NCBI GenBank assembly: GCA_965368975.1
Contig: CBDUPA010000001.1
Location: 576,001 to 640,000, forward strand
Direction of reading: 5' to 3'
Source of the DNA: an uncultured bacterium
GTDB taxonomy: Bacteria; Acidobacteriota; Thermoanaerobaculia; Multivoradales; JAHZIX01
DNA: 64,000 bases
Both the position numbers and the translations under genes were made by a program. Positions within the stretch are counted from its first letter, which is position 1; each line of letters opens with the position of its first letter. Under the pieces are notes generated by a model. That model did not search any database and was not told the DNA's origin. It worked only from the letters and a program-made list of their open reading frames with translations. This document shows positions 1,661 to 48,915 of this stretch, one piece after another.

Positions 1661-1873
1661 CAGACCCGCGTCCTCAACCGGGGGCGGCAAGAGCTAGAGC
1701 CCTGGATGTTTTGTAGAGGAGAAACGAAGGTTTGTTAGACAGAAGCCACATTTTCCGCCACAATTCATGCGGAAACAACGACTCATGAATACGGACTTTA
1801 GCGCGAAGTGCCAGAGGGGGGATATTGCGATGCTCAGTGAAGCGCAGCGCGTTAGGTGCCCCGCATCAATCCA

Positions 1874-3190
1874 ATGGCACAGCTAAGCTTCGTCGAACGT
1901 AGAAAGCTTGAGACGCTCTTCGAAATGGGCGGCGGGTACGTTCTCGACTTCTCAAACCGCACTCTTCAGGAATTTGTTGCGGACAGTGTTGGAGTCGAGA
2001 TTTACGACGAGCGATACAATTATGATTCCGGATCGAAGGCGAACCGGCTACGCGGGTTCTGGAAGATCGAATCCGATGCGAACGTTGCCAAACTCATCCG
2101 GGATTTGGTGGACTACGCGGAATTCCTAAACAAGAACACCGATGCGGACCTTGTTTCCGCATGTAGGGCCATAGCTGATCGGCTCGTTGCCAGGTCGAAC
2201 ACGAGCGATTCTGAGAATTCCGCTATGTCCCGTCCGATTCGCGTTTTCATTGCGTACAGCCATGATTCGCCCGAACACGTTCGCCAAGTACTAGCACTCT
2301 CGGACTCCCTGCGGCGGGACGGAATCGACGCCGACCTCGACCAATATCACTTATCGCCGACCGATGGATGGCCCGCGTGGGTCAGTAACCAACTCGCAAC
2401 TGCTGACTTCGTGATCATCGTCTGCACCAAGGTGTTCTTGCGACGTTTTCGCGGCGAAGATAAAGCCAGTATTGGACTTGGGGTTGAATATGAAGGCGCT
2501 CTCCTTCAGGAAACGAACTTCAATGACTCGTCCTTATTTGAAGTCGGTCGCAAGACAACAAGGTACCTGCCGGTTGTGTTTTCGAACACCGATTCAGCCT
2601 ACATTCCCCCGCAGTTTCGCGCGCTTACCTTCTACAACCTAACTGGGCCTGAAGGGTACGGTTTCCTATACCGGCGGCTTACCAATCAACCAAAGCTCGC
2701 CGCTTCCCCTATCGGTGAACTCTTCAAGCCGCCACCAAGAGCTACCGAAGATAAGCTCAACGGGCTACGCACGTTCCTCTGCCATTCGTCAAAGGACAAG
2801 CCAGCGGTCCGCGATCTCTACAAGAAGCTACTGACGCACAACGTAAGACCTTGGCTAGATGAAGAGGATCTATTGGCGGGGCAAATATGGCGCGAAGAGA
2901 TACCCAAGGCTATCCGTGGCTCGCATGCGGTAGTGGTTTGCTTATCAGCCAATGCCGTGAGCAAGGCCGGCTACTTTCACAAAGAGGTGAAATTCGCGCT
3001 TGACGTTCTGGACGAACAACCTGAAGGTACAGTTTTTGTCGTTCCGGTTCGTCTGGCAGAATGCGATATACCTGAACGCCTTGGGCATATTCACTGTGCA
3101 AACCTTTACGACCACAATGGATTCGAGAAATTGCTTCTCGCACTACAATCGCGCGCAAAGCAAGTCGCGGCTAACAACAAAGACATCTAG
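1874..3190 (+). CDS. AbiJ-N-terminal-like + SEFIR + TIR domain protein, putative anti-phage
   Basis: N-term LFEMGGGYVLDFSNRT..SKANRLRGFW (AbiJ_NTD3-like); middle VFIAYSHDSPEH..L..DGIDADLDQY..GW..W (SEFIR); C-term FLCHSSKDK..WLDEEDLLAGQIW..GYFHKEVKFALD (TIR_2 with Glu); lower GC than flanks. Alternative GTG start at 1856. Confidence 0.85.
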   Translation: MAQLSFVERRKLETLFEMGGGYVLDFSNRTLQEFVADSVGVEIYDERYNYDSGSKANRLRGFWKIESDANVAKLIRDLVDYAEFLNKNTDADLVSACRAIADRLVARSNTSDSENSAMSRPIRVFIAYSHDSPEHVRQVLALSDSLRRDGIDADLDQYHLSPTDGWPAWVSNQLATADFVIIVCTKVFLRRFRGEDKASIGLGVEYEGALLQETNFNDSSLFEVGRKTTRYLPVVFSNTDSAYIPPQFRALTFYNLTGPEGYGFLYRRLTNQPKLAASPIGELFKPPPRATEDKLNGLRTFLCHSSKDKPAVRDLYKKLLTHNVRPWLDEEDLLAGQIWREEIPKAIRGSHAVVVCLSANAVSKAGYFHKEVKFALDVLDEQPEGTVFVVPVRLAECDIPERLGHIHCANLYDHNGFEKLLLALQSRAKQVAANNKDI

Positions 3191-3274
3191 CAATTGCGTG
3201 AGCCGGAGCAGTGAATCCGGCGGAATCTGAAAATAACGCGTAACGTCGCCGCCCGGTTACGCTGGTTGTTAGGC
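3185..3274 (+). mobile_element. Integron attC-like recombination site (solitary, degenerate R'')
   Basis: R'' ATCTAGC overlaps the TAG stop; 5-bp spacer; L'' CGTGAGCC; L' GGTTACG; R' GTTAGGC; arms GCGTGAGCCGG / CCGGTTACGC pair with one extra base. Confidence 0.65.
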
Positions 3275-3637: not shown

Positions 3638-3925
3638 CTACCGCTCGCTCTTCGGCCTCTGAATCACCCGCATCGTCCCCTGCTCCTCTCGCTCCCGCTG
3701 CAACTTCTGCACGTGCTCCGTCAGCCACCGATCCCGCTCTGCCTGAGCTTCTTCGAGCGTCCGATACTTCCGGACTCCCTTCGGATAGCTGCGTGGATTC
3801 AAGAGCGCACTCCGTCGCCACAATTGACGAACCCGCTCGAGGTACGCGTCGTCTGGCTCATCGCACCACATGTCGCGGTCGGCGGCGTTCATTTCTTCGA
3901 GCGTTCGGAACTTTTGTACTGGCAT
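3638..3925 (-). CDS. Small hypothetical protein with a duplicated K(F/Y)RTLEE motif
   Basis: 95 aa; MPVQKFRTLEEM and GVRKYRTLEEAQ internal repeat; GAGG upstream. Confidence 0.7.
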   Translation of the reverse strand: MPVQKFRTLEEMNAADRDMWCDEPDDAYLERVRQLWRRSALLNPRSYPKGVRKYRTLEEAQAERDRWLTEHVQKLQREREEQGTMRVIQRPKSER

Positions 3926-4056
3926 TGGAGCGGAGCCTCAATCCTCAAAGAAGAACCGTTGTAGAAGGCGTGAAGAGCTGCCTCGAGCGCCCATGACTAT
4001 CGAACGATGTTATCTCGCTTGGCGCCACGACGTCTGAGCGGCTCGGCTGTGCGCCC

Positions 4057-4096
4057 AGAAAATGCAAAAGCCCGGCATCTTCGAGATGCCGGGCTT
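4057..4096 (-). terminator. Rho-independent terminator of the RiPP precursor-like gene
   Basis: Perfect 13-bp stem AAGCCCGGCATCT-tcg-AGATGCCGGGCTT; U-rich tail on the minus strand (TTTTGCATTTT). Confidence 0.85.
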
Positions 4097-4117
4097 GACC
4101 GAAGGAGGTACTAGCCT

Positions 4118-4291
4118 TCAGCAGGCGAAGCAGGATCCGCCGATGTCGCAGGTCTGCTGGGAGTTGCAGGGATAGCACGTGAACGTGCAAACGACGGTGC
4201 AGACCTCGGTAGCAGCGCCCTTGGCTTGTTGCGTGGAAGATTCGCTGAGCACGGAGAGTGTTTCGCGGCTGAGGCGTAGCTTCTTCTTCAT
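4118..4291 (-). CDS. 57-aa Cys-rich RiPP (class I lanthipeptide-type) precursor-like peptide, absent from the ORF track
   Basis: Hand translation MKKKLRLSRETLSVLSESSTQQAKGA-ATEVCTVVCTFTCYPCNSQQTCDIGGSCFAC; SD AAGGAGGT 7 nt upstream; terminator downstream; KKLxLxxETL leader; GA cleavage-like site; 7 Cys. Confidence 0.85.
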   Translation of the reverse strand: MKKKLRLSRETLSVLSESSTQQAKGAATEVCTVVCTFTCYPCNSQQTCDIGGSCFAC

Positions 4292-4352
4292 AGGTATGAC
4301 CTCCTTGAAGATTTCTCAGAACCTGCTTAGGTTCAATGAATAATGTGTTCTT

Positions 4353-4382
4353 AGGGTAGTGTGCTTGGTAGGTCGAAGTCAA
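4353..4382 (-). promoter_or_regulatory. Possible sigma70 promoter for the precursor gene
   Basis: TTGACT-N18-TACCCT on the minus strand, about 60 bp upstream of the ATG. Confidence 0.35.
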
Positions 4383-4505
4383 TGCCCTGGTGGCGCTTGC
4401 TCGGTGGTCCGTGCCGGAATTGTCCGGTAGACGATCTGGTTGTTGAGCAAAACGACTGTCTCTCACGCGGAGCCCGACGCTATCCGCAACTACCGGAGGC
4501 CCCTG

Positions 4506-7500
4506 ATGCGAAACCGTGTTCGTCCCCTCGTTCTGCCGACCTTCGGCCTGTTGTTGCTGACTCTGACTTCGGCGGCGCACGCCCAGGAGCCGCTCTTCAC
4601 GTCGCAGGTGCGCAGTGCCCAAGGCGACGGATGGCGTGTGATGGTGAACGTGGACGGGCTCTTGACGGCACCGGAGTTGCTCACGTTCGAGTTACCTACG
4701 GGAGAGACGGTGTGGGCGCGTCAGGACCACTTCGAGGTCGACGGTTCGTTCGTCGACGACGAAGGCGACGTCCGAGAGACGTTTCGCTGGTGGGGCAAGA
4801 CGGACGATGGCGAAGACGTCCTGCTCAACGGCGTTGGGAACCAGGTGGCGGGAACGGTGATGCTGCAGTCAGGGATGTATCGGCTGCAGCCTACAGGCAG
4901 TCGTCAGCACCGCTGGTTCCGCGCAGCTGACCCGGAGGCGGGCTGCGGGACCGATCAGGATGTGGTGCAACGAGTCCGTTCGGTCCTCGAATCACGAGTG
5001 GCCGCTGAGGCCACGGCCTCGGCGGTGGTCACCGGACAGGACACGGGCACCGAGGATGTCGCGGCCGGCAAGGCGGGGCCGACAGTCGACGTGGTCATGG
5101 TCTACAGTCCTTCGGCCCGCGCGCGCGTCGGTGGGGATGCGGCGATGCTGGCGGAGATCCGCAGTGATATCGATTACACGAATCGGGCGCTGGGCAACAG
5201 CTTGATCGACGCGAGCGTTCGCCTCTTGCAGGTAGAGCAGGTGAACTATCAGGCGGACGCGGGCAGTGATGCCGGGCTCAACTGGTTGATCACCAACGGT
5301 GACGGCATTCGCCGCGCCTGGGGAGCAGATATCGTTGGGATCATCCACCACGTGACCGACTATTGCGGCATCGCTGCGTATCGGGGTATCCGCGGCAATG
5401 CCGACGGTGGCTTTTTCCTGACCGCCTCGAACTGTCTCGGCCGGGGCACGACGGCGCACGAGTTGGGGCATTTATGGGGTGCCGATCACGATCCTGAGAA
5501 CGCGGGCATCGCGCATGGCACGCAGTCGTTCGCCACCTATCCCGATGCCTATGGCAACTTCTATGACGGCATCTACCGCACGATCATGTCGTACAGCCGT
5601 CCGTGTGACCTGGGATGCCCCAAGGCACCGTACTTCTCCAATCCTGCGGTTTCGTATCTCGGTCGGCCGACGGGCACGAGCCAGCGCGCCAACCATCGCG
5701 TCATCCGCGACTACAGCCCGACAGTTTCGCGCTATTTCACGTCCAAGGCCGGGCCGCCGGCAGGGCCCACGGATCTGACCGCGGAAGTGGTGGAGACGGC
5801 GAGTGGCTTCGAGGTGATGCTGACCTGGACCGATCGCGCCAGCAAGGAGGGGCACTACGAACTCTACCGGGCGACGGACGGCGGCGCGCTGCCACGTTTG
5901 ACCCGGCTGAGCAAGAATAGCGAGCGTTATGTCGACCGGGCGGTCGAAGGGCGGCGAACCTACAGATACCAGGTGGAAGCGGTAAACCTGCAGGGCAGCA
6001 GCCGCTCGGAAGAGGTCGAGGTCGAGGTGGTGGCACTGGCGGCCCAGTTGGAGGTGCAAGCCAACCTGCTACGGGCCGGTGAGCCGGTGGTCTTTGACCT
6101 GCGGGTCGAAGGGAGTGGCCGGCGGGCACTGTGGTCCTTCACGCCGATTCTCGGCACACAAGCGACGGATGGGCTTGCGGTCACGGATGCCGCGAGTGGT
6201 TGGGGAGCGGTCCACGTGTTCGACACGCCCGGTGTGTATGAGGTCAGGGTGAAGGTGCAGGGCGGCCACGGACAGGAGGTCGCTGCGAACCTGACGCTCG
6301 ACGTACGTGGCGCGACGCCAGTCTGGACGCGCACGGCGTCGCGGTTGCAGAGCGTGATCCATGGTCCGCGCGGCGGCGGTGGCGTCTTCGAAAGCCAGCT
6401 GTGGCTGCACAATGCGGGCGCCGCGCCCGCGCTGGTCGACCTGGCGTTCCTGGCGCGCGGCCAGGACAACCGCACGGCGCGTCGGCGTGCGTTGACCTTG
6501 TTGCCGGGGCGGACGCTGCACTTGCCGGATGTGGTGTCGACGCTAGACGCCGAGGGCGCCGGGGCGCTGAGCGTCGAGGCGCGAGCCAATGCGGATCTGC
6601 ACAGCGCTGCGCCACGCGTGCTGGCCTTCGGTCGGTCGTTCGTCGAGCGTCCCCAGGGCCCGAACGGTGCGAGCTTCGGCCAGCGGGTGGGGGAAGAGCC
6701 GGCGGAGCTGTGGAGCGACGCCACGCGCTGGATCGTCGGGCTCTACGATGGTCCCGAGGTCGACGACGTGACCGAAGCTGACGACGGAGCCGAGACGGGC
6801 TGGCAGGCGACGTTGCACGGTGTCAACCTGGAGGATCGTCCCGGCCGCCTGACGCTGGAGCTGACGGACGCGCTGGGTCGTGCCGTCGGTGAGCCGGCAG
6901 AGCTGGGCTTGCCGCCGCAGGGCATGCGCTTCCAGCGGCTGATTCAGCTGTTCCCCGAGGTGCGTGCCTTCCAGCCACCGTTCACCGCGCGGGTGACATC
7001 CAATGGCATCCGCTTCCTGGCGTCCGGGACGCTGCTCGAGAGCGGCTCGGAGGATCAGGCGTTCTTACCAGGACAGGGTGAGCTGGTGGGGCCGGCGAGT
7101 GTCCAGACACGCCTGCTGATTCCGCGTGTCGTCGAGGGACCGGGGCAGTTTGGTGTCACGCTGAGTACGAGGCTGCTGCTGCACAATCCGGCTGACGTCG
7201 CGCGTACGCTAACGCTGGAGCTACTCGAACGGGGGCAGGACAACTCGCAGCCCAAGACTGCGACCGTGACGGTGCCGGCGGGACAGACGCGGGAGATCCG
7301 AGCGGTGTTGCCGTCGCTCTTCGACATCGACAGCGGTGCTGGTGCGCTGGCTCTCAGCTGGCAAGGGGAGGGACCTGCTCCGCAGGCGGCCGCGTTGGTC
7401 TTCGCGCGCGCTGAGGCGGGGGAGCGTTTCGCCACGCGCGTCGAGGCGCGCCCACCTACTGCAGCGGCGACCGAGCGGTCGATCGACTTCGGTGCCGAGC

Positions 7501-7805
7501 AGTCGTCGCGTTTCACGTCTGCCTACGGTGTGCTCAGCCTGTTCGAGCGCACGACGCGGCTGGAGCTGATCCTGCGCGACGGCCAGGGCGTCGAGCTGGC
7601 ACGGCGGACACAGAACTTGCGGCCACATCAGCATCTGGAGCGGAGTCTGCTCGGGCTCTTCGAGGACGCGGCTGGTCAGCTCCAAGGCGTCCAGGATCTG
7701 GCTGTCGAGACGCGCGTGCTGGCAGGTGGGCCAGTGCTCACGTACCTGATCAATGTCAACGTCTCGGGTGACGTCTTCTACGTGCCGGGGCGTGGGTGGC
7801 GCTAG
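4506..7805 (+). CDS. Secreted metzincin (reprolysin/M12-like) metalloprotease with FN3-like, PKD-like and C-terminal repeat domains
   Basis: GGAGG RBS; signal peptide ending AHA; HELGHLWGADH zinc motif; TIMSY Met-turn; LTW.D..Y.Y.V.AVN FN3 pattern; H.F..PG.Y.V PKD pattern. Confidence 0.88.
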   Translation: MRNRVRPLVLPTFGLLLLTLTSAAHAQEPLFTSQVRSAQGDGWRVMVNVDGLLTAPELLTFELPTGETVWARQDHFEVDGSFVDDEGDVRETFRWWGKTDDGEDVLLNGVGNQVAGTVMLQSGMYRLQPTGSRQHRWFRAADPEAGCGTDQDVVQRVRSVLESRVAAEATASAVVTGQDTGTEDVAAGKAGPTVDVVMVYSPSARARVGGDAAMLAEIRSDIDYTNRALGNSLIDASVRLLQVEQVNYQADAGSDAGLNWLITNGDGIRRAWGADIVGIIHHVTDYCGIAAYRGIRGNADGGFFLTASNCLGRGTTAHELGHLWGADHDPENAGIAHGTQSFATYPDAYGNFYDGIYRTIMSYSRPCDLGCPKAPYFSNPAVSYLGRPTGTSQRANHRVIRDYSPTVSRYFTSKAGPPAGPTDLTAEVVETASGFEVMLTWTDRASKEGHYELYRATDGGALPRLTRLSKNSERYVDRAVEGRRTYRYQVEAVNLQGSSRSEEVEVEVVALAAQLEVQANLLRAGEPVVFDLRVEGSGRRALWSFTPILGTQATDGLAVTDAASGWGAVHVFDTPGVYEVRVKVQGGHGQEVAANLTLDVRGATPVWTRTASRLQSVIHGPRGGGGVFESQLWLHNAGAAPALVDLAFLARGQDNRTARRRALTLLPGRTLHLPDVVSTLDAEGAGALSVEARANADLHSAAPRVLAFGRSFVERPQGPNGASFGQRVGEEPAELWSDATRWIVGLYDGPEVDDVTEADDGAETGWQATLHGVNLEDRPGRLTLELTDALGRAVGEPAELGLPPQGMRFQRLIQLFPEVRAFQPPFTARVTSNGIRFLASGTLLESGSEDQAFLPGQGELVGPASVQTRLLIPRVVEGPGQFGVTLSTRLLLHNPADVARTLTLELLERGQDNSQPKTATVTVPAGQTREIRAVLPSLFDIDSGAGALALSWQGEGPAPQAAALVFARAEAGERFATRVEARPPTAAATERSIDFGAEQSSRFTSAYGVLSLFERTTRLELILRDGQGVELARRTQNLRPHQHLERSLLGLFEDAAGQLQGVQDLAVETRVLAGGPVLTYLINVNVSGDVFYVPGRGWR

Positions 7806-7942: not shown

Positions 7943-8947
7943 ATGACTTCCGAAACAGCAGCCGCACCGACCCTCGACGAGATCCGGGACGCGCGTCGCC
8001 GAGTCGGTGACTTGATCGTCACCACGCCGACCTGGCACTGGCGCGGCCGCGAGGCCGAGAGGGCCTTCGGCGACACCCAGGTGTTCCTCAAGCTCGAGCT
8101 GTTCCAGTACGCGGGTACCTTCAAGCCGCGCGGCGCTCTGCTCAACATGCTGGAGATGGACGACGACGCGCGCCGTCGAGGTGTCACCGCGGTGAGCGCG
8201 GGCAACCACGCGATGGCGGTGGGGTACGCCGCCAAGGCCTTGGGCATGCAGGCCAAGGTGGTGATGCCGAAGACGGCCAGCCCGGTGCGTGTGCAAGGGT
8301 GTGAGGCGTACGGCGCCGAGGTGGTGCTGGTTGACGACGTGCATCAGGCCTTCGACGAGGTCAGGCGGATCGAGCGCGAAGAAGGCCGCACCTTCATTCA
8401 TCCCTTCGAGGGGCGCAACGTGGCGCTGGGCACCGGCATGGTGGGCCTGGAGCTGGCCGAGCAGGTCCCGGATCTCGATGCGGTGATCATTCCGGTGGGG
8501 GGCGGTGGTCTGGCGGCTGGTATCTCGACGGCGTTGCGTGCGGCGCAGCCGAGCTGTGATTTGTTCGGCGTCGAACCCGAGGGGGCCGACTCGATGCACC
8601 GCAGCTTCGCTGCTGGCAGTCCGCAGGCGATCGAGCGCGTGCGCACCATCGCGGACAGCCTCGGCGCCCCGCATGCGGCGCCGTATAGTTTCGAGCTCTG
8701 CCGCCGCAACCTGACCGGCCTGGTGAAGATCGACGACGATGCGTTGCGTGCGGCCATGGGACTGCTGTTCGCGGACATGAAGCTGGCTGTGGAGCCAGCG
8801 GCCGCGGCGGCGACGGCAGCTCTCTCCGGCCCTCTGGCCGAGCGCTTGCGCGGGCGCCGGGTGGGACTGGTGGTCTGTGGAACCAACTACGATCTGGCCA
8901 GCTTCGCGGCCAATGCCCAAGGCGGAACTGCCCGGCGGCCGACCTAG
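7943..8947 (+). CDS. PLP-dependent threonine/serine dehydratase family protein
   Basis: LKLELFQYAGTFKPRG (PLP Lys), SAGNHA, PVGGGGL, VEPAAA. Confidence 0.92.
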   Translation: MTSETAAAPTLDEIRDARRRVGDLIVTTPTWHWRGREAERAFGDTQVFLKLELFQYAGTFKPRGALLNMLEMDDDARRRGVTAVSAGNHAMAVGYAAKALGMQAKVVMPKTASPVRVQGCEAYGAEVVLVDDVHQAFDEVRRIEREEGRTFIHPFEGRNVALGTGMVGLELAEQVPDLDAVIIPVGGGGLAAGISTALRAAQPSCDLFGVEPEGADSMHRSFAAGSPQAIERVRTIADSLGAPHAAPYSFELCRRNLTGLVKIDDDALRAAMGLLFADMKLAVEPAAAAATAALSGPLAERLRGRRVGLVVCGTNYDLASFAANAQGGTARRPT

Positions 8948-8984
8948 TCGACCCGCTGCCCAGGCGCCCGTGGCGTGCCACCTG

Positions 8985-11900
8985 ATGCTGGACATCGGAA
9001 CCAAACTCCTCGATCGCTACGAGATCCTCGCCGAAATTGGCCGCGGTGGCGTGGGCGTGGTGTACGAGGCGAGCGACATCAAGCTGCAGCGGACCGTGGC
9101 GGTCAAGTTGCTCAACGCACCGCGCGCCGATGCCGAGACGCTGGCCCGCTTCGACCGTGAAGCGCGTTTGATCGCACGCCTGGACCATCCGGCGATCGTG
9201 CCGATCTTCGACGTTGGCAGTTGCGACCTCGGGGCGGAAGGCGAAGTGCCGTACTTTGTCATGCCGCACGTCGGTGGCGAGAGCCTGCGTTCGCGCCTGC
9301 GCCTGCGCTCACTGAGCCTGTCCGAGATGCTGGATGTGCTGGTGCAGGTAGCGCGCGGGCTCGACTACAGCCACGCCAAGAACGTCGTGCACCGTGACGT
9401 CAAGCCGGGCAATATCGTGTTGTCGCAGGAGCCCGGCGGCGGCTTGCGTGCACGGCTGACGGATTTCGGCATGGCGCGCAGCGGAGAGTTCGACGAGCGG
9501 CTGACCGATACCGGTTCGGTCATGGGCACGATGGTCTATCTGAGCCCGGAGCAGGCCTGCGGACACGATGTCGACGCGCGCTCCGACATCTACTCACTGG
9601 GCGTCGTGCTCTACGAGTGCCTCGCCGGCACGCCGCCGTTCACCGGCAATCCGGCGGCGGTGGTGATGGGAATCACTCAGCTGCAACCGGCGTCGCTGTC
9701 CGAGCGTGGGCTCGGGCTGGACGACGAGCTGGAGGCTCTGGTGCTGCAGTGCCTGGAGAAAGACCCGGCCCTACGGCCGCCGACCGCTGGCGAAGTGGCC
9801 GCGCGCCTGCTGCGTTTGCGGGCGCGGCTGGTCGAAGGTGAGACGATGACGGTGCCGGTTCTGCCGCCGGTGGTCGGCCGCGGTCAGGAAGCGACGCGGA
9901 TCCTGCATCCCAGTGGCGAGGCGACCGCTGTTTTCGAGTCGCAGCCGCGGAAGCCACGCGGTGCACCTGGGGTACCGCTTTCGTGTCTGTGCCGTGAGGA
10001 CGAGCTGGACGCGCTGGAGAGGCGTCTGCGCGCGGCGGTCGAGACGGCGGGTTGTCAGCTGGTGCTGATCGGTGGTGAGACCGGCATGGGCAAGACCGAA
10101 CTAGTAGAGGAACTCGGACGGCGCGCGCAGAACGGTGGCGGTTTGGTTCTCAGTGGTCGCTTTGTCGAGGACGATGCCTTCGCCCACCAAGGTTTCTGTG
10201 AGTTGATCCAAGATTATTTCGATGGCGGTTCAGTGCGCGGCATGACGCTGGTGGAAGATCTCGCCGACCTGGTGCCGGATCTGCTCGGCCTCTTTCCCAG
10301 CCTGGGCGAGATCGAGGCGCTGCGCGGCTTCGCCTCGTCGCGCGGCTGGCGCAGCGGCGACCGCCGCCGCAGCGAGGATCCGACCCACATCTTCGAGCTG
10401 ATCTCCCGCACGCTGATCCGGATGGGAGAAGGCCGTGTGCTGGTGCTGCTGCTGGAGGAGCTGCACGCCACACATGCCGGTATCGAGGCGTTGCATTACG
10501 TGGTGCGGCGGCTGGCCGCAACGACGACCCTGATGGTGGGTACCTTCCGTCCCTCGGCCACGACCGGCGAGCATCCCCTGGACCAGATGCGTGCGGCCTT
10601 CGCCGGTGATCCCCGCTTTCAACTCCTGGAACTCGAGCGTCTGAACGCCGAGCAGCACCTGCGCCTGCTGCGCGCGATCACCGGTAAGGAACACATTGAC
10701 CCTAAACTGGCACGGCGCCTGCTCGAGATCACCGAAGGCAACCCCTTCTTTACCCGTGAAGTGGTGCGCTCACTGAGGCCGGAGGGGGGCACTTTGCCCA
10801 GGTCGCCGTGGCAGATCGGAGCCGATGCAGGTTCGGATTCGCAAGCCGGCTGGGACGTCGAGTCGGCCGTCGGCATGCTGCCGGACACGATCCAGCAGGT
10901 GGTCAGCCGCCGACTGCAGCGCCTGTCGGCGGAACTGCGGCAGGTGCTCAGCGTCGCCGCGGTGCTTGGCCGTACCTTTGCCTTCTCCGACCTGGGTGCA
11001 CTGGTGCAACTGCCCGGTGATCTGGATGATGCGGTCGATGCTCTGGTGACGGCGGCCTTTCTCGAAGAGGCTCCGCAACTGGCCGGTGATCAGCTGCGTT
11101 TTTCCAGTGCCATCGTCCGCGACGTGCTCTACGACGAATTGCCACCGCGCAAGCGGCGGTCACTGCACCGCGCTTTCGCCAACCACCTGGAAGCGACCTA
11201 CGCCGGACGTTTGGAGCAGGTCTACCCGCAGCTGCTGCATCACTACGTCTGTGCCCGCGTGGCCGAGCGCGTGCGAGATTATGGGCTGCGGCTGGCCAGC
11301 TTGAAGGTGGAGCTTTCGAGCGGTGCCGCGGCGCTGGCCGCTGCCGAGCGCGCCGCCGCGGCGCAGGCCGAGCTGACGGAGGTGGGGCCGGCCGCCGCCG
11401 GTGAATTGAGCCGGGTGCTGGGGCAGTCCAAGCACCTGACCGGGGACTTCGACGGCGCGCTGGAGGCTTTTTCCGAGGCCGATCGACACTTTCGGCGCAG
11501 CGGCCAGACGGCGGAACGCACGCATGTCGCGGCCCTGGCGGCCGAGGCTGCCTGGCGCGCGCGGCGCGTCGACGAGGTGGGTGCCTGGGTGGATCGCGGC
11601 CTGGCCCAGGTCGGGCCGGGCGTCGAACTGCACCGCCGACGCCTGCTGCGCCTGGGCGCCACGCTGGCCAACCTGCGCGGTGAATACCACCGGGCGCGTC
11701 AGTACCAGCAGCAGGCCGACCAGTTGCGTCCGCGCCAGCTCGAAGGGCGCACCGAGATGCCGCGCGGTGGCCGCCTGGTGGTCGGCTTGCCGGCGGAACT
11801 GCGGGGTCGCCACCCAGTGGAGCTGCGACTGGTGGAGGAGATGGAGGTGCTGGCCAACGTGTTCGAGACGTTGTTGGTCAAGGACAGCCAGGGCGTGCTG

Positions 11901-14792
11901 CTGCCGCACTTGTGTACCCGCTGGCGCCTGCACAGCTCCGGCCGTTCGGTGCGCCTGGAGCTGCGCAACGACGTGCTCTTGCACGACGGCCGCCCGCTGA
12001 CGGCTGCCGATGTCAAGGCCTCGATACAGTGGGCCGTGCGCCGTTGCAGTGAGCGCCTACCGCCGGCGCTGGCCGCGATTCGGGGCGTGGGTTCCTGGCG
12101 TCGGGGCGATGCCGACGACCTGGAAGGGGTCTGTGTGCTGGCGGCGAGTGAGTTGGAGGTGCTGCTCGAGGAGCCATTGCCGATCTACCCGGAGCTGCTC
12201 ACCGATACACGCACAGCGGTCGCCATTCCGGTTGCCGACGCGAGTGAAGCACAGCTGGAAGCCGGTATTCGCGACCAGGCGGGCCTGCTGCTCGGGACCG
12301 GTCCTTTCCGTCCCGTGCAGGTGGCCACACAGCGCGTCGAGTTGGCCCGCCAGGAAGCCTACTGGGATCAGCCGCCACGTCTCGACGTGCTCGAGTTCCA
12401 GGCCGGCCTGGAGTCCGAGCAGATGGCCGAGGGGCTCCGCGGCGGTAGTCTCGACATGGCTCTGGAACTGCGCCCGGACGATCTCGAAAGCCTGTTGCGC
12501 GACCGCCGCCTGCGTCGCCGCCTGGTGGAAACTCCTTGGACCAACAGCTTCTTCGTGGTCTTCGACCGCGCCGGCGAAGTCGCCCGTCACTACGCACTCC
12601 GCCGAGCGCTGTCCGGCGTCGTGCAAACCGATAGCCTGGTACGCCGCTTGCTCGGCCGCCTGGCCCAGCCGGCCGACGGCTTGTTACCGCCCGGTATCCT
12701 CGGGCACGACCCGGGGCGGCGGCGCGAGCGCCTGTCGCTGGTGCAGGCACGAGAGGTCTTGGAGGACGTCGGCCTGCGGCCTCCGATCCGCCTGCGCGTC
12801 ATGCTCCATCCCAGCTTCCGCAATCGCTATGACCAACTGGCGCGGGAACTCTTCGAGCTGTGGGCGCAGTTGGGGGTCGAGGTCGACATCGAATCGGGCG
12901 GTCTGACCCACTATTTGTCGCACCCTGAGCGGGGGACGGAAGAAGGCGCACCGCACGTCGATGTCATCCTGGCTCGCTGGATCGCTGACTACCAGGACCC
13001 GGACATCTTCACGCACGGTCTTTTTCACTCGCAGCAGGGGCGCTTCCGCCACTCGTGCTCGTCACCTCAAGGTGATCGGCTGCTCGAACAGGCGCGCGCA
13101 AGTGCCGATCCAGATGTCCGCGCCGACTTGTATCGTCGCTTCGAGGATCAACTGCTCGACAGCCATCTCTTGCTGCCGCTCTTCCACGAGATCAACTACC
13201 GTCTGCTGGGTCCCAACGTGCGCGGGCTCGAAGTGTCGGGCACACCGCCGTACGTCAACTACCGGCAGCTGGCCAAGCTCGGTACGCGGCCAGCGGGGTC
13301 ACTCCTACCCGCCGAGTCCAGCGGCCGCGCTACCGGGGCGGGACTCTCGGTGGCACGCATTCCGGTGGCCCGTATCCCGATGATGGGGCACCTCAATGAC
13401 CTGGACCCAGCGGTGCCGATCGCTTCTCGCCTGCAGGCACTGAGCGCCCTCTACGAAACGCTCATGCGCCAGGGGGACAGTGCACGTATCGAGCCCTGGC
13501 TGGCCGAGTCGGTCGACAGGCTCGACCAGGGCCGATGCCTACGCCTTCGCCTGCGCCGCGACGTTCGTTTCCACGATGGGCGTCGTTTCGGTGCACGCGA
13601 CGTGCGTTTCTCCTTCGAGCGCCTGCTGCGCAGCTCCAGCTACAGTCGCTGGTTGCTGGCACCGGTGCGGGGAGCCCGCGACGTGCTCGAAGGGCGTACG
13701 CGCGAACTCGTCGGTCTGCGGCTGCGCTCGGCCTTCGAACTCGATATCGAGCTGGAGTATCCGGTTGCGTTCTTTCCCGCGGTGCTTACCGCGGTAGCTA
13801 TCGTCGCGGAGGGCAGTGACGATTTCACTGGCGACTGGCGTACCTGCGGTGGTGCTACCGGTCCCTTCCGAGTCCGCCGCTTCGACCCAGGCCGCGGCCT
13901 CGATCTGGAGGCCAACCCGGACTACTGGCGCGAAGGCTTGCCGCGCCTGGATCGTCTGTGCTTTGACTTCAACGTGCCGCCCGCGTCGGCGCTCGAAGGC
14001 TTGCACAGCGGCCGCTTCACCCTCGCCTGGGAATTGCCACCGTCAGCGCTGGAGAGCCTGGAGCAGGATGGGGACTTGCTGTTCCGGGAGATTCCTGGCC
14101 TGGCTACCGCTTTCCTTGCGTGCAACGTTCACCGGGGGCCGCTGGCCGATTCTGAAACGCGCCGACGGCTGGCCGCGGGGCTTGGTGTCCCGGACCTGGT
14201 GCAACGTCATCTGGGCCGCCTCGGAACCGTGGCGCGTAGCCTGATCCCACCCGATCTGCTGGGCTACGAGCCGCTGCAGTCACGACAGCCGAAGTCGTCG
14301 TCGCAGCCGCCGGTCGAGCTGGCGGTCATGCTGCAGTCTGCCTTCCAGAGCCAGTATGCAGACATGGCGCGCGACCTGCTGAGACAGCTGGAGAATTGTG
14401 GCTTCCGCGTACGCTTGGTCGAGCCGCACCCTTTCTACCAGGCGCTGCTGCCAAACCAGCGGGTCGACCTGGTGATCAGTCGTTGGATCGCCGACTATCC
14501 AGATCCCGACGCCTTCGTGCACAGCGTGTTGCACAGCGTCGAGGGTGGGGTCGGGGCGCTGTGTGGCGATCGCGCCCTCGACGCGCTGATCGATGAAGGG
14601 CGCAAGACCGCCGACACGGTCCGTCGACGTGAGATCTACCGCGACATCGAAGGCCTTCTGGCGCGCGAGCAGCGCCTGCTGCCACTGTTTCACGAGCAGA
14701 TCTACCGCTATGCGCGGCCGGAAGTACGCGACTTCGAGATCCACCTGTCGCCGCCGCAAGTCGCCTATGAGAAGTTGTGGCTGCAGGGCTGA
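8985..14792 (+). CDS. Ser/Thr kinase + AAA/STAND-like ATPase + helical region + two family-5 solute-binding domains
   Basis: GRGGVG, AVK, HRDVKPGN, DFG; Walker A GETGMGKT and Walker B LLLEELH; GNPFF motif; two ETL..LR.DV..HDG..A.DV..S / GPF / W.ADY.DPD modules. Confidence 0.88.
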   Translation: MLDIGTKLLDRYEILAEIGRGGVGVVYEASDIKLQRTVAVKLLNAPRADAETLARFDREARLIARLDHPAIVPIFDVGSCDLGAEGEVPYFVMPHVGGESLRSRLRLRSLSLSEMLDVLVQVARGLDYSHAKNVVHRDVKPGNIVLSQEPGGGLRARLTDFGMARSGEFDERLTDTGSVMGTMVYLSPEQACGHDVDARSDIYSLGVVLYECLAGTPPFTGNPAAVVMGITQLQPASLSERGLGLDDELEALVLQCLEKDPALRPPTAGEVAARLLRLRARLVEGETMTVPVLPPVVGRGQEATRILHPSGEATAVFESQPRKPRGAPGVPLSCLCREDELDALERRLRAAVETAGCQLVLIGGETGMGKTELVEELGRRAQNGGGLVLSGRFVEDDAFAHQGFCELIQDYFDGGSVRGMTLVEDLADLVPDLLGLFPSLGEIEALRGFASSRGWRSGDRRRSEDPTHIFELISRTLIRMGEGRVLVLLLEELHATHAGIEALHYVVRRLAATTTLMVGTFRPSATTGEHPLDQMRAAFAGDPRFQLLELERLNAEQHLRLLRAITGKEHIDPKLARRLLEITEGNPFFTREVVRSLRPEGGTLPRSPWQIGADAGSDSQAGWDVESAVGMLPDTIQQVVSRRLQRLSAELRQVLSVAAVLGRTFAFSDLGALVQLPGDLDDAVDALVTAAFLEEAPQLAGDQLRFSSAIVRDVLYDELPPRKRRSLHRAFANHLEATYAGRLEQVYPQLLHHYVCARVAERVRDYGLRLASLKVELSSGAAALAAAERAAAAQAELTEVGPAAAGELSRVLGQSKHLTGDFDGALEAFSEADRHFRRSGQTAERTHVAALAAEAAWRARRVDEVGAWVDRGLAQVGPGVELHRRRLLRLGATLANLRGEYHRARQYQQQADQLRPRQLEGRTEMPRGGRLVVGLPAELRGRHPVELRLVEEMEVLANVFETLLVKDSQGVLLPHLCTRWRLHSSGRSVRLELRNDVLLHDGRPLTAADVKASIQWAVRRCSERLPPALAAIRGVGSWRRGDADDLEGVCVLAASELEVLLEEPLPIYPELLTDTRTAVAIPVADASEAQLEAGIRDQAGLLLGTGPFRPVQVATQRVELARQEAYWDQPPRLDVLEFQAGLESEQMAEGLRGGSLDMALELRPDDLESLLRDRRLRRRLVETPWTNSFFVVFDRAGEVARHYALRRALSGVVQTDSLVRRLLGRLAQPADGLLPPGILGHDPGRRRERLSLVQAREVLEDVGLRPPIRLRVMLHPSFRNRYDQLARELFELWAQLGVEVDIESGGLTHYLSHPERGTEEGAPHVDVILARWIADYQDPDIFTHGLFHSQQGRFRHSCSSPQGDRLLEQARASADPDVRADLYRRFEDQLLDSHLLLPLFHEINYRLLGPNVRGLEVSGTPPYVNYRQLAKLGTRPAGSLLPAESSGRATGAGLSVARIPVARIPMMGHLNDLDPAVPIASRLQALSALYETLMRQGDSARIEPWLAESVDRLDQGRCLRLRLRRDVRFHDGRRFGARDVRFSFERLLRSSSYSRWLLAPVRGARDVLEGRTRELVGLRLRSAFELDIELEYPVAFFPAVLTAVAIVAEGSDDFTGDWRTCGGATGPFRVRRFDPGRGLDLEANPDYWREGLPRLDRLCFDFNVPPASALEGLHSGRFTLAWELPPSALESLEQDGDLLFREIPGLATAFLACNVHRGPLADSETRRRLAAGLGVPDLVQRHLGRLGTVARSLIPPDLLGYEPLQSRQPKSSSQPPVELAVMLQSAFQSQYADMARDLLRQLENCGFRVRLVEPHPFYQALLPNQRVDLVISRWIADYPDPDAFVHSVLHSVEGGVGALCGDRALDALIDEGRKTADTVRRREIYRDIEGLLAREQRLLPLFHEQIYRYARPEVRDFEIHLSPPQVAYEKLWLQG

Positions 14793-31533: not shown

Positions 31534-32151
31534 CTACCGGCCAGTTTCCAGCTGCGCGCTGCGGTGCTGTCGGTGGTAGGCCCACAGACGCTGAGCAGCC
31601 GTGAACAGCGTCAGGACGGTGTAGGTCCATGCTAGCGCTGTGAACCAGCCGGGCACGAGCGCCATGACGAAGATCAGCAGGAAGCTCTCCGGTCGCTCGA
31701 TCAGGCTTGGCAGGTCGGCGTAGCCCTTGTGATTCCGGGTGCGCGTGAAGACACTGAGGATCAGGTAGGTGCTCATGTTGATGTAGAGGCTACTCAGCAT
31801 GGCCAGGGTCTCCCAGCCTCGTTCTGCCGGGGCGACGCTGAAGAGGCCGACTAGCAGGGCGGTATCAACGAAGCGATCGGCGATCGAGTCGAGGACGGCG
31901 CCGCTTTCGGATTGCACACCCGTGCGCCGGGCCAGGGCTCCGTCGAGACAATCCAGGTAGCCGGTCAGCAGGATCAGCACCAGGGCTGTGGCATGGTGGT
32001 CCCAGTAGAAGGCGGGCAGGACGGCCACGCCGCTCAGCAGGGACAGCATGGTGAGGACGTTGGGTGTCAGCCCCGGGACGCGGCGCAGCACCTGAACCGC
32101 GGGGTCGAAGAGCAAGCGAGCGAACAGGGGGCGCAGCTTGGGACCGATCAT
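31534..32151 (-). CDS. CDP-alcohol phosphatidyltransferase family protein
   Basis: TPN.LT and D..DG.LAR..G..S..G..LD...DR signature; GGAGG-like RBS. Confidence 0.9.
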   Translation of the reverse strand: MIGPKLRPLFARLLFDPAVQVLRRVPGLTPNVLTMLSLLSGVAVLPAFYWDHHATALVLILLTGYLDCLDGALARRTGVQSESGAVLDSIADRFVDTALLVGLFSVAPAERGWETLAMLSSLYINMSTYLILSVFTRTRNHKGYADLPSLIERPESFLLIFVMALVPGWFTALAWTYTVLTLFTAAQRLWAYHRQHRSAQLETGR

Positions 32152-32162
32152 GTGCGTGCCTC

Positions 32163-32520
32163 CTAGAACGTTGCCGCGCTGGAAACGGGGGAGAACCAAA
32201 GGACCAGGCGCGGCAGCAAGGGGATCAGCTGCGATAGCAAGAAAAGCAGCAGGTAGGCGCGGTGCCAACGTCGTTCCTCACTTTGCGCGAAGCCGAGTAC
32301 GCACAGCAGCGTGGCGAAGCCGCCGACCGGGGCGACCAGGTAGGTGGTGCCGAGGAAGAGAAGAAGGAGCAGCTCGCGCAAAGTCGCCGGTGAAACCTTG
32401 GCAGTCGCGGTGGCGTCCACAGGAAGAGGACGGCGAGTAGCGCTTCGATGACGAGAGTCCAGTACGACATCAGCACTGCCGTCCAGCGCAGGCGCGGACT
32501 CGAGGTGAGGACGGCGACCG
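32163..32520 (-). pseudogene. Frameshifted fragment of an integral membrane protein
   Basis: LRWTAVLMSYWTLVIEALLAVLFL in one frame continues as LRELLLLLFLGTTYLVAPVGGF in another; shift near 32381; no obvious 5' part. Confidence 0.55.
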
Positions 32521-32565
32521 CGTCGCTGCACACCACCGACGAACGAGGCCAGGCCCGCGAAGCGT

Positions 32566-33000
32566 TCAGGTGACCCGGGGGGGCTCCTCGGGCGGACTTC
32601 CAGGATGCCAGTGATAGTGCTGGACGCTGAGGCGCACGCGCGCCACTCTCGAACTGGCTCGTGCGGCGATCGTCGAGTTGGCCGGAAGTGGATGGCAGAT
32701 GGGCAGCGTCGCCGATGCCGATGCCGATGCCGATGCCGATCCCGATGCCGATCCCGACGCCGACTCCAGCTGCAGCGCGAGCCGACCCAGGGCCTCGGCC
32801 AGGGCCTGGAAGTCTCGCTCGTTGGGGCGAGTTCGCAGGCGCACCAGGCGCTCGGGCTCGCCCAGGCTCGGCCACGCCTCGGCGCTCAGCCGACAGGAGA
32901 TACCTTCGGTGGTCGTGACGACGCCGTACACCGCCGGCAAGCGCGCGAGCAGGGCCACGAGCCGCTGCCGTGAGCCCGCGTCGCGCAGGGGCACTTTCAT
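32566..33000 (-). CDS. Hypothetical protein with a Ser-Ala repeat
   Basis: ATG overlaps the stop of the glycosyltransferase-like gene. Confidence 0.45.
   Translation of the reverse strand: MKVPLRDAGSRQRLVALLARLPAVYGVVTTTEGISCRLSAEAWPSLGEPERLVRLRTRPNERDFQALAEALGRLALQLESASGSASGSASASASASATLPICHPLPANSTIAARASSRVARVRLSVQHYHWHPGSPPEEPPRVT
32711..32764. repeat. Hexanucleotide tandem repeat (GCCGAT)n, about 9 units
   Basis: Direct reading of GCCGAT/CCCGAT units. Confidence 0.9.
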
Positions 33001-34103
33001 CTCTCATGGACACGCTGGGCAACGTACCGTGGGTAGTCGGTGCCCGGCTCGCGCTCGAGCAAGTTTCGGTGCAGGCGTTCGAGCACCGCCAGGTCGAAGC
33101 CCGTGGCGCGCCAGGCTTCGTAGCGGATGCCGAAGCCCAGGTGTTCCCAGATGTCGGCATTCTTCTCTTCGGCATAGCCGAACGGGTCGAGCAGGATCAG
33201 GGGGGTGGCCGAGGCCAGGGAGTCGATCATGGTGCCGCCGCCGGGCTTGCTGATGACGGCGCGGCTGCGACGGACGGTGTCGAACAACTCGTGATGGCTG
33301 TCACGGTTGCGAAAACCGCCCTTGCCGTCACGCACCGGTCCGAAAGGCGGGAACTCGGCGCGCTCGCCGATCTCCAGTTGCCAGGCGGCCCAGCCGGGCC
33401 GCACCATGAAGCAACGGCTACCGTCAGCGACATCGTGGGTTTCCTCCAGCTCGTAAGCGAGGATATCGAGGTCGAAGCCGGCGGCCCGCAGCTCGGGGAT
33501 CAAGCGCTGGTAGTTGCCCAGGCCCCAGCCACCGCCGTGGATGACGAAGCGTGCCTCGCGCTGATCCCAGGGCAGCGGAGGTTGGTCGCCGACCGGGATC
33601 TCGAAGTCCAGGCGGCGCTCGTGCCAGGGCCAGAGCCAGACTTCCCGGCCGCTTTGCAGAAGTTCAGGTTCGAGATCGGCGTAGGGCTGGAACGAGGCCG
33701 AGACGACGGCGTCGATGCGGCACAGGTGGATGTCGCAGGCGATGCCGTCGCGCCGCTCTCGGTAGGCATCGAGAATCGGCAGCCAGAAGCCGGACCAGAC
33801 GAGGAAACGCCGCCGATCTTCCGCCTGCCAGCGAGCCAGCAGCTTCTCCAGGAGTCGCGGGTCGAGGCTGGGCCGGATGTCCTTGACCATGCGGTGGGCC
33901 ATCAGGGCGAGCGAGAAGTTCTTGTGGTAGGCCTTCTTGTGTTGCCAGAGCTTGGCGCGTTCCGTCGCCTGGTAGCAGCTCTCGATGACCTCGACCTCGG
34001 CGGCGACGCCCAGGGCTTCGAGCCGGCGGGCGACCAGCATGGCGGGAATGTAGACACCCAGATTGACGCCGGAGCCGAGGACGGAGACGGTAGCTTCACT
34101 CAT
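32997..34103 (-). CDS. GT-B fold glycosyltransferase-like protein
   Basis: N-terminal GSGVNLG loop; HGGGWG; A.ISKPGGGT..DS......L......E..NA as in the MurG/MGDG-synthase C-domain. Confidence 0.75.
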   Translation of the reverse strand: MSEATVSVLGSGVNLGVYIPAMLVARRLEALGVAAEVEVIESCYQATERAKLWQHKKAYHKNFSLALMAHRMVKDIRPSLDPRLLEKLLARWQAEDRRRFLVWSGFWLPILDAYRERRDGIACDIHLCRIDAVVSASFQPYADLEPELLQSGREVWLWPWHERRLDFEIPVGDQPPLPWDQREARFVIHGGGWGLGNYQRLIPELRAAGFDLDILAYELEETHDVADGSRCFMVRPGWAAWQLEIGERAEFPPFGPVRDGKGGFRNRDSHHELFDTVRRSRAVISKPGGGTMIDSLASATPLILLDPFGYAEEKNADIWEHLGFGIRYEAWRATGFDLAVLERLHRNLLEREPGTDYPRYVAQRVHER

Positions 34104-34134
34104 TCGGTGGCTTCAGCCGCGGGAGCGGTCTGAC

Positions 34135-34425
34135 TCATGTGCTGATGTGACAGGTGGCCGTGTCGGCTGCGGGCGTCGGCTCTCCTAGACGGTTCAGCGT
34201 GCCGAGGAACTGCGCCAGGCTGCCGAGCGACTGCAGTTGACTGAAGTCCATGCGGGCGAAGTCGATCTCGATCTGTAGCTGTTGTTCGATGCCGAGCATC
34301 AAGTGCAGCATCTCGAGCGAGTCGAGGCCGACGTCTTCGAGGATGTTGGTCGAGGCATCGAGAGTCGCGGCCAGGCCGGGTTGTCCCTTGATGTCTTCCA
34401 GGATGCTCTTGAGACCTTCGATCAT
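34135..34425 (-). CDS. Stand-alone acyl carrier protein
   Basis: DVGLDSLEML phosphopantetheinylation motif; GAGGG RBS. Confidence 0.9.
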   Translation of the reverse strand: MIEGLKSILEDIKGQPGLAATLDASTNILEDVGLDSLEMLHLMLGIEQQLQIEIDFARMDFSQLQSLGSLAQFLGTLNRLGEPTPAADTATCHIST

Positions 34426-34435
34426 GGTGGGTCCC

Positions 34436-35197
34436 TCAGTTCGCCGCGGCGAGGCGGTCGTTGCGGATCGCCAGGCCGATCCCCATGAACCGGCCCTGGA
34501 CGCTGTCGTATTGATCAGTGAATTCGAAGCACTCGTACTCGCCCAGCGCCTGCACTTCCCGCCACACGGTCGCCACGTCGGGGTACGTGTCGCTGGCAAT
34601 GTCGTGGAAGGCGAGCATATTCGCGTAGGGGTGCAGGGCTCGAACCTCGTTACGGCAGTGTTCGGCCTCGTGCAGCGAATCGATGAGCACCAGGTCGAAG
34701 CGGCCGTGGCGTTCCAGCAGCTCGGTGAAGGCAGGCTTCTGGGTGTCGAGGCAGGCGAACTCGGCTTTCGGCTGGTACTGCCGACGGTAGGCGTCGAGGG
34801 CGGTACAGGGAATGATGTCGACACCGACGGCGTGATCGAGTGGGGTGAAGCGTTGCAGGTATTCCACCGTCGCGACGAAGGTGCCGCCATGCCGTACGCC
34901 GAGTTCCAGGTAGGACGTGATGCCGAGCCGCGACAGCGCCGCCAGGTAGCGGCCGAATTGGTGTGGGTACTGCCAGATGCGCAGACCCTGGCCGCAGTAG
35001 GGATGGAGGTCCACGGGGTACTCGTCCAAGCCTTCGTCGTTGAGTCCGAGTTCTAGTAGCAGAGGCACGAGTCGCACCGGGTCGCGCAGCCGCTCGCGGG
35101 GACAGGTGCGCAGGAGTGCCAGGCGAGACAACTCGATCGGGCTGGGTGTCAGGCGCTTGAGCCTGCTCCATGCACTGGGTATGCCGGTTGCGCTCAC
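34436..35197 (-). CDS. Class I SAM-dependent methyltransferase (Methyltransf_24/CmcI-like)
   Basis: WQYP, YLELGVRHGGT, GVDI, FDLVLIDS.H, AFHD. Confidence 0.8.
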   Translation of the reverse strand: MSATGIPSAWSRLKRLTPSPIELSRLALLRTCPRERLRDPVRLVPLLLELGLNDEGLDEYPVDLHPYCGQGLRIWQYPHQFGRYLAALSRLGITSYLELGVRHGGTFVATVEYLQRFTPLDHAVGVDIIPCTALDAYRRQYQPKAEFACLDTQKPAFTELLERHGRFDLVLIDSLHEAEHCRNEVRALHPYANMLAFHDIASDTYPDVATVWREVQALGEYECFEFTDQYDSVQGRFMGIGLAIRNDRLAAAN

Positions 35198-36849: not shown

Positions 36850-36854
36850 CGAGG

Positions 36855-38066: not shown

Positions 38067-38257
38067 GAACCGGCCCCCGCGGCTTGTGCGGCGAGCAGAA
38101 CCACCCGGCAATGAGGAACCGAGCGGGCAGCGCCGCTGTGCCGTTTCTCGAGTGTTTAGGCGATCAAGCCAGAGAGAGACTAACCTATTTCGAGTGGGGC
38201 GACAAGCGGCGACTGCCCAGGGTTCTCTACCGGCGGGAGTCGTTCCCGAGGGCGAGA

Positions 38258-48900: not shown

Positions 48901-48915
48901 GATGGTCCTTCCCGT

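Follow-up and report, generated by a model that had tools for sequence, protein, structure and literature searches.

The peptide gene and its expression signals

The stretch of DNA studied here (the window) comprises 64,000 nucleotides of an uncultured member of the Acidobacteriota and corresponds to positions 576001-640000 of contig 1 (C1:576001-640000, GenBank CBDUPA010000001.1; other contigs are likewise denoted C) in a genome of 7.13 Mb, 59 contigs and 65.4% G+C. Near its beginning, on the minus strand, lies a 57-codon open reading frame (ORF) with an intact frame from ATG to TGA, for which an earlier note on this DNA had proposed a role as an orphan precursor of a peptide that is made by ribosomes and modified after translation (RiPP) with a core rich in cysteine. 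Both the position and the amino acid sequence given there proved exact. The features of the gene are collected in Table 1.

Table 1. Features of the peptide gene and its surroundings in the window
Feature	Position	Strand	Evidence
Precursor peptide gene, 57 amino acids (aa) + stop	4118..4291	-	ORF list, sequence, G+C content at third codon positions (GC3), leave-one-out leader profile score
Leader, residues 1-26, MKKKLRLSRETLSVLSESSTQQAKGA	4214..4291	-	LxLxRx5L and Gly-Ala end; profile matches
Core, residues 27-57, 31 aa	4121..4213	-	Sequence; Cys-Ser/Thr pairing; (S/T)xxC units in homologues
Shine-Dalgarno (SD) site AAGGAGGT	4299..4306	-	Sequence; SD-like motifs typical of the family
Intrinsic terminator, 13-bp stem, 3-nt loop, T-rich tail	4058..4096	-	Hairpin search, RNA folding
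Divergent intergenic region, 214 nt, common to the peptide gene and the M12B/PKD gene	4292..4505	.	No sigma-70-like site found in the scan

The GC3 of the ORF is 0.78, as compared with 0.46 and 0.56 in the other two frames and with a median of 0.785 for the 138 long ORFs of the genome that served as reference. An overlapping ORF of 225 aa (3945-4622, minus strand) was rejected as the gene because its GC3 is 0.56 and it has no Pfam match. The exact 57-aa protein is present in a large protein collection (entry P0001); therefore, at least one gene caller has called the ORF. A search for sequencing runs listed none of RNA and one of DNA (word share 0.16); reads of the latter gave two short contigs identical to the window at 3000-3235 and 4396-4667, neither of which covers the ORF.

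The gene had been described as a self-contained transcription unit with an SD site, a candidate promoter and a perfect terminator. The SD site is separated from the ATG by 7 nt, and the terminator hairpin (4096-4068) has a perfect stem followed by the tail TTGCATTTTC; its RNA folds with -28.6 kcal/mol (z = -2.76), which was equalled by 1 of 200 shuffled sequences. These two elements thus stand, whereas the promoter found no support: a sigma-70 consensus scan of 3900-4600 revealed no sites, and the hexamer TTGACT at 4382-4377 is accompanied, by manual reading, by a -10 hexamer that matches in only three of six positions. The description as a transcription unit is therefore limited to the SD site and the terminator. 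As judged by these two signals, the GC3 and the intact frame, the 57-aa ORF is a real gene and probably a functional one.

Assignment of the leader

A single NCBIfam profile matched the leader at E<=10, namely NF038153 (lant_leader_L1a, class I lanthipeptide), with 18.9 bits and an E value of 0.0013. The motif LxLx(K/R)x5L of this leader type is present as L5-x-L7-x-R9-x5-L15, and the leader ends in G25-A26. The statement of the earlier note that such leaders occur in class I lanthipeptide precursors and are cleaved by C39 peptidases agrees with the survey of Walker et al. 2020 (PMC7268733), in which class I precursors (LanA) of Bacteroidetes are described as having an LxLxKx5L leader that ends in Gly-Gly and as frequently being accompanied by a C39 protease in their cluster.

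Two further profiles were built from leaders. With a profile from eight leaders adjacent to LanB or LanC genes (four from this genome and four from the relative G007), the leader scored 26.5 bits (E 1.2e-5) and ranked 23rd among the 58,424 small ORFs of the genome; 39 of these reached E<=1e-3, as compared with none at E<=0.01 in the reversed set. A profile of the genome's own leaders, which was seeded by a regular expression and controlled by leave-one-out and by the enzyme-adjacent profile, gave 37.9 bits (E 3.4e-9) when this ORF was left out of the seeds. When NF038153 was run against all six frames of the genome, 45 matches at E<=10 were obtained, of which 16 exceeded the curated cut-off; in 14 control genomes no match did so. 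By its sequence, the leader is assigned to the double-glycine family with the motif LxLx(K/R)x5L that is found in class I lanthipeptide precursors. Cleavage is predicted after Gly25-Ala26 from the alignment with the homologues P0002 (GG|ATDLC), P0007 and P0008.

A dispersed precursor family

Paralogues of the leader, the search for which had been proposed as a check, are abundant. The genome's own profile matched 52 of the 58,424 small ORFs at E<=1e-3 and 53 at E<=3e-3, whereas the reversed set gave none. Thus, at least 53 ORFs with L1a leaders occupy 37 loci, which are spread over 20 contigs. This number leaves out at least one more member, at C10:228856, which lies inside a long open frame. 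The idea of a dispersed precursor family matured in trans, which the earlier note had put forward, is borne out to the extent that the family exists and that maturation enzymes are encoded elsewhere in the genome (see below).

In an alignment of 51 sequences, M1, L5 and L7 never vary, and conservation is 90% or more at E10, T11, L12 and G25, whereas the cores cannot be aligned. An SD-like motif precedes 45 of 48 family members, as compared with 601 of 4997 random small ORFs; a strict terminator-like hairpin was found in only 5 of 48. The peptide gene studied here has no other family member at its locus, and its leader belongs to the shorter ones in the family. Most precursors are remote from candidate enzymes: 49 of 53 lie more than 10 kb from any LanB, LanC, C39 or SPASM gene, and four lie within that distance. 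The 123 ORFs scanned with Pfam around loci L119-L130 are ordinary housekeeping neighbours.

Two arrangements within the family are recorded here as such. In one member (C1:497366-497166) the core is duplicated internally and contains two ALETxNTVLCCD repeats, and two tandem members at C21:93891-93192 share an identical C-terminal core stretch while differing in the N-terminal parts of their cores.

Composition of the cores

The 31-aa core of the peptide contains seven Cys, including the CxxxCxxxCxxC pattern, and seven Ser/Thr, as had been noted before. It opens with three consecutive TxxC units of the (S/T)xxC type, and each of the seven Cys can be assigned to a unique Ser or Thr upstream in an S/T(x)2-7C arrangement.

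Family-wide core statistics are based on the 48 of 53 ORFs that could be split into leader and core. Cys is present in 47 of the 48 cores, the number of Cys does not exceed that of Ser plus Thr in 47 of 48, the residues comprise 12.4% Cys and 20.4% Ser+Thr, and the median core length is 26 aa. A Ser or Thr occurs 2-5 residues upstream of 135 of the 169 core Cys; shuffled cores gave 93.2 +/- 6.3, and none of 1000 shuffles reached 135. One-to-one pairing of Cys with an upstream Ser/Thr at a distance of 2-7 residues is achieved for 154 of the 169 Cys, as compared with 101 +/- 5.9 in shuffled cores, 154 again being reached in 0 of 1000. The number of Cys is odd in 21 of 47 cores; hence, there is no bias towards even numbers in the family.

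Enzymes and exporters encoded in the genome

The earlier note had found no LanB, LanC, LanM or C39 transporter in the 64 kb, and this agrees with the present searches. All matches of PF04738, PF05147, PF14028 and PF03412 in the genome lie outside the window, and Pfam scans of 43 window ORFs revealed none of the four proteins, with LanM (DUF4135) not having been the object of a dedicated search. The wider search for maturation enzymes, also proposed there, yielded a full LanB with two LanCs, two further stand-alone LanCs and three C39 exporters. The absence of homologous leaders and of any compatible maturase, which had been named as grounds against the proposal, does not apply to this genome.

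The one canonical LanB is encoded on contig 13 (C13:48590-52069; 1159 aa) and matches PF04738 with 558 bits and PF14028 with 223 bits. Its operon has the order LanB-LanA-LanA-LanC-LanC, and both LanAs combine an L1a leader with seven Cys. The genome has four stand-alone LanCs. Two belong to this operon, and each of the other two has a single L1a precursor 5' of it and no LanB nearby (C13:186196-187704, locus L142, and C1:561300-562878, locus L124; the LanC of L124 was missed by gene calling and seen in the profile searches). These two pairs therefore need a dehydratase that acts in trans.

Three complete exporters with a C39 peptidase and an ATP-binding cassette (ABC) are encoded at C13:97 kb, C13:122 kb and C8:194 kb. 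They have HlyD-type partners, one has an outer-membrane factor as well, and none adjoins a precursor or a Lan enzyme gene. Two small ORFs between the contig-13 exporters (C13:106894-106751 and C13:109011-109151) have a different double-glycine leader type, ...L(E/D)xVAGG, and may represent a second precursor family.

The genome also encodes enzymes of related kinds. A split LanB on contig 12 consists of an elimination domain (C12:117344-118159) followed by a glutamylation domain (118700-120874), and it has its own precursor of 40 aa that the L1a leader profile does not detect. LanB N-terminal domains of the glutamylation type, with no elimination domain, are present in several large ORFs at C9:118735-128334 (878, 944 and 1698 aa); the genome has only two elimination domains (PF14028), neither of them on contig 9. 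The contig-9 ORFs may be LanB-like peptide-modifying enzymes of another kind. SPASM genes number six, of which one is in the window.

Homologues and distribution among relatives

A word-indexed protein search with the peptide returned one relative besides the protein itself, and exhaustive phmmer gave seven matches: the protein itself, two small peptides and four long proteins (782-6448 aa) matched in several stretches each. ESM Atlas gave only leads below 0.9, among them one cluster with the Pfam family Lant_leader_dom on 63% of its members. P0002 stems from a metagenome contig of 1.5 kb and shows 49% identity; its first 12 residues agree with those of the peptide, its leader ends in GG, and its core starts with ATDLCTVVCSVPC. 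P0007 and P0008 retain the leader and the core opening (S/T)xxC-TxxC-(S/T)xxC, and the (S/T)xxC units recur in all three. In a metagenome-assembled genome of Thermoanaerobaculia (locus L153), an orphan peptide shares the first 15 residues and has a different 7-Cys core; its gene lies between a Xer-type recombinase gene and a CorC-type gene, as judged by their translations. That genome has four NF038153 matches and one full LanB, which is on another contig.

Among 30 relatives, L1a matches at E<=0.01 were found in five, and in none of the five genomes of the same family. A strong full-length LanB is encoded in every one of the five L1a-bearing relatives, the best E values ranging from 1e-105 to 1e-176. 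L1a leaders are absent from the 15 relatives that have no LanB_N match, from the eight with only weaker LanB_N matches (best E 2.1e-75 or poorer), and from two with a strong LanB (G009 and G025). Leaders adjoin LanB in G007 and G010, whereas no leader is on a LanB contig in G011 (11 leaders) or in G030 (17 leaders), the latter being a fragmented assembly.

Modelling of the leader with LanB

A complex of residues 1-800 of the contig-13 LanB with the 57-aa peptide was modelled using alignments of 6 rows for LanB and 51 rows for the peptide. The model scored 0.64, as compared with 0.00 for the best control. Of 80 solved complexes, 58 reached this mark, as did 2 of 110 mismatched pairs; these counts hold roughly, as custom alignments were used here. 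The runs showed at least 43% contact agreement, and the partner had a predicted local distance difference test (pLDDT) value of at least 38. Confident contacts link peptide residues 3-17, which hold the conserved leader motif, to LanB residues 244-268 and 290-316.

The complex of NisB with NisA, in nisin biosynthesis, has been solved, and the leader docks there on the N-terminal domain of NisB. Similarly, our model places the conserved leader segment as an extended strand next to a beta-strand and helices in the N-terminal domain of LanB. The two systems differ in that the leader motif is LxLxRETL here and FNLD in nisin, and in that the nisin genes are clustered.

Proposed maturation of the peptide

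Taken together, the gene probably encodes the class I lanthipeptide precursor (LanA) of a ring-rich, antibiotic-like peptide; this precursor has a Gram-negative L1a double-glycine leader and would be dehydrated in trans by the contig-13 LanB, cyclised by a LanC, cleaved after Gly-Ala and exported; we favour this reading while leaving appreciable room for others. The 57-aa peptide would be translated from its own small unit, of which the SD site and the terminator are seen. Leader residues 3-17 would then dock on the leader-binding region of the contig-13 LanB, as suggested by the structure model. By analogy with the LanB family, this enzyme would dehydrate up to seven Ser/Thr residues using glutamyl-tRNA; class I dehydratases have been reported to require glutamyl-tRNA-Glu (PMC9993889). 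One of the four stand-alone LanCs may add the seven Cys to give up to seven thioether rings, the first three of them (S/T)xxC rings. Finally, one of the three C39-peptidase ABC exporters is expected to cut after Gly25-Ala26 and to export the 31-aa product. For the family as a whole, the layout would be that of a hub with spokes, in which at least 53 precursors at 37 loci, with conserved leaders and hypervariable cores, have one dehydratase operon in common.

Other genes of the window

The peptide gene is surrounded by genes for a ClpB-type ATPase and a TIR/SEFIR protein, by some small unassigned ORFs and by a divergent M12B/PKD gene. The last (4506-7805, plus strand) encodes a secreted protein of 1099 aa and begins 214 nt from the peptide gene. 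Its paralogue on contig 23 (C23:22807-25869, i.e. L149:8308-11370) is 39% identical over 614 aa, with PKD and without the reprolysin domain, and is likewise divergent from a 7-Cys L1a precursor, at a distance of 196 nt. An old segmental duplication might account for the pairing, as might local co-regulation of the two genes. As a dedicated partner of the precursors the M12B/PKD protein was rejected: no homologue is encoded in G030, which has 17 leaders; those of G007, G010 and G031 are located on contigs other than the ones with leaders; and the orthologues in four L1a-less relatives have no L1a ORF nearby. Because the pairing fails to recur in these genomes, the protein was not counted in the system. 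A search for related loci with the C-terminal domain of the M12B/PKD protein found nothing.

The radical S-adenosylmethionine (rSAM)-SPASM gene of the window (36855-38423, minus strand) lies together with AMP-binding, carrier-protein (PP-binding) and CDP-alcohol phosphatidyltransferase genes at 31534-38423 (minus strand), and this cluster looks like one for lipid or small-molecule biosynthesis, unrelated to the peptide. As a maturase the rSAM-SPASM gene was rejected, being 32 kb away and in a lipid-type context.

Three other loci are mentioned for completeness. About 0.9 kb downstream of the peptide unit, a gene at 1856-3190 (plus strand) encodes a SEFIR + TIR_2 protein that may be defence-related. 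At 8877-14792 (plus strand), a 1971-aa fusion of a Ser/Thr kinase, an AAA_16 ATPase domain and a family-5 solute-binding domain is encoded. The genome has two copies of a gene pair in which a large unassigned gene comes after a Ferritin-like (PF12902) gene, one at 47737-52298 (minus strand) of the window and the other at L123:4963-7820, where this second pair adjoins the L1a precursor at C1:497 kb.

Weighing of the alternatives

Several points weigh against the proposed maturation. The leader does not reach the curated cut-off of NF038153, which is 22 bits, even in the six-frame search (19.9 bits). No LanB, LanC or C39 gene lies within 17 kb of the peptide gene; the LanB is on contig 13, and the nearest LanC (C1:561 kb), 17,249 nt away, has its own precursor. 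The split LanB of contig 12 and the LanB_N-like genes of contig 9 could act instead of the contig-13 LanB. Seven rings in 31 residues would be unusually dense, and full modification is not assured. The complex model makes a mode of leader binding plausible and falls short of demonstrating binding, the fold of the partner being uncertain; the model may also have passed partly through likeness to the solved NisB-NisA complex. The co-occurrence of LanB and L1a leaders comes from relatives that are kin rather than independent, and the division into strong and weak LanB was chosen after seeing the data. Lastly, 308 ORFs were called in the neighbourhood of the precursors and 123 of them were covered by Pfam scanning, and the other loci were described by their distance to five enzyme families only.

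The peptide might instead be an unmodified or disulfide-bonded double-glycine peptide, bacteriocin-like or a signal, that is only cleaved and exported by a C39 ABC protein and carries no lanthionine. For that, the GG/GA-type leader and the three complete peptidase-containing ABC transporter systems with HlyD partners, tied to no particular precursor, would suffice; no modifying enzyme is near the gene, and double-glycine leaders are reported from many peptide classes (PMC7268733). However, an unmodified double-glycine bacteriocin of the class II type would be expected to have a dedicated C39 exporter and an immunity gene beside it, and none of the three C39 exporters is near a family member; the seven Cys are an odd number, as in many of the family cores, and the excess of Ser/Thr shortly before Cys over that in shuffled cores, the confinement of L1a leaders to relatives with a strong full-length LanB and the occurrence of the same leader type inside a LanB/LanC operon all count against a product without modification. 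The odd Cys counts and the pairing of Cys with Ser/Thr similarly weaken the disulfide-bonded or metal-binding peptide that the earlier note had offered as an alternative, though it keeps some probability. On balance, an unmodified or disulfide-bonded product is considered unlikely.

It is also conceivable that the precursor is modified by other machinery, i.e. the split LanB of contig 12, the LanB_N-like proteins of contig 9 (C9:118.7-128.3 kb), the LanC at C1:561 kb acting on something else, or an rSAM-SPASM enzyme such as those of the six SPASM genes. Candidates of this kind do exist, but all L1a precursors are more than 25 kb from the nearest SPASM gene and more than 48 kb from the split LanB, which has a precursor of its own; the eight relatives with only weaker LanB_N matches have no L1a leaders; and the rSAM gene of the window adjoins the AMP-binding, carrier-protein and CDP-alcohol transferase genes. 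Such a route is therefore given a low probability. Still less weight is attached to the ORF being a decaying or silent copy without a product. The sigma-70 scan gave no promoter, and the short leader and the solitary position at the locus would fit such a copy, but the frame is intact, the GC3 is at the coding level of the genome, the SD site and the terminator are strong, and homologues found in other samples preserve the (S/T)xxC pattern of the core. A class I lanthipeptide precursor processed in trans is thus the reading that we retain.

Comparison with known systems and significance

Class I lanthipeptides of Gram-negative bacteria with double-glycine leaders have been described (PMC9680876, PMC7268733) and include the viridisins VdsA1/A2 (modified by VdsCB), Ped15.1/15.2, the thalassomonasins and the pinensins. 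These systems resemble the present one in having a separate LanB and LanC, a conserved leader of the LxLxKx5L kind that ends in Gly-Gly or Gly-Ala, several LanAs with dissimilar cores rich in Cys, Ser and Thr, and C39 transporters as the expected means of leader removal. They differ in that their LanAs are in an operon with LanB and LanC, whereas the gene described here stands alone, with a LanC 17 kb off and the LanB on another contig. Furthermore, they have two or three members as compared with at least 53 here, and they come from Bacteroidota or Gammaproteobacteria and not from Acidobacteriota.

In scale, the family is closer to the prochlorosins (ProcA/ProcM) and to SyncA/SyncM of marine picocyanobacteria, with 29 and 79 precursors, respectively (PMC7268733, PMC12328550). 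Common to both is that tens of precursors, whose leaders are conserved and whose cores are hypervariable, would depend on a single modification system; in the picocyanobacteria many of these precursors are encoded far from the enzyme. However, ProcM and SyncM belong to class II, with a single LanM and Nif11-type leaders, whereas the system proposed here is of class I, with a LanB, several LanCs and the L1a leader, and two of its LanCs are each paired with a single precursor. A leader of the Nif11/NHLP type was not matched by the peptide (only NF038153 was), and the associated enzymes are a separate LanB and LanC, again as seen with no search dedicated to LanM.

The genome could encode a natural combinatorial library of class I lanthipeptides, in which one substrate-tolerant LanB would act on at least 53 hypervariable precursors, four LanCs would take part, two of these each having a precursor to itself, and the leaders would be removed by three unlinked C39 exporters. 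Such an arrangement would be the class I, two-enzyme counterpart of the prochlorosins and ProcM, and at least two more genomes of the order (G011 and G030) appear to have the same layout. This wider proposal is tentative, and we put its chance at a little under even.

In the open-access literature no description of a dispersed class I precursor family was found, and natural lanthipeptide systems with one enzyme and many substrates were found described only for class II, namely ProcM and SyncM (PMC12328550). The survey of Walker et al. was limited to seven genes around a LanC, and in the available text of a 2026 account of RiPPs of Acidobacteriota (PMC13083261) the characterised clusters belong only to classes II and III. 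If the proposal is true, the LanB and LanCs of this genome would have an unusually relaxed core specificity, which would be useful for peptide engineering, and genome mining based on clusters would overlook most class I precursors in such genomes. The family would also provide about 50 new scaffolds from an uncultured phylum, and the peptide gene itself would pass from an unexplained orphan to a testable substrate of a named set of enzymes.

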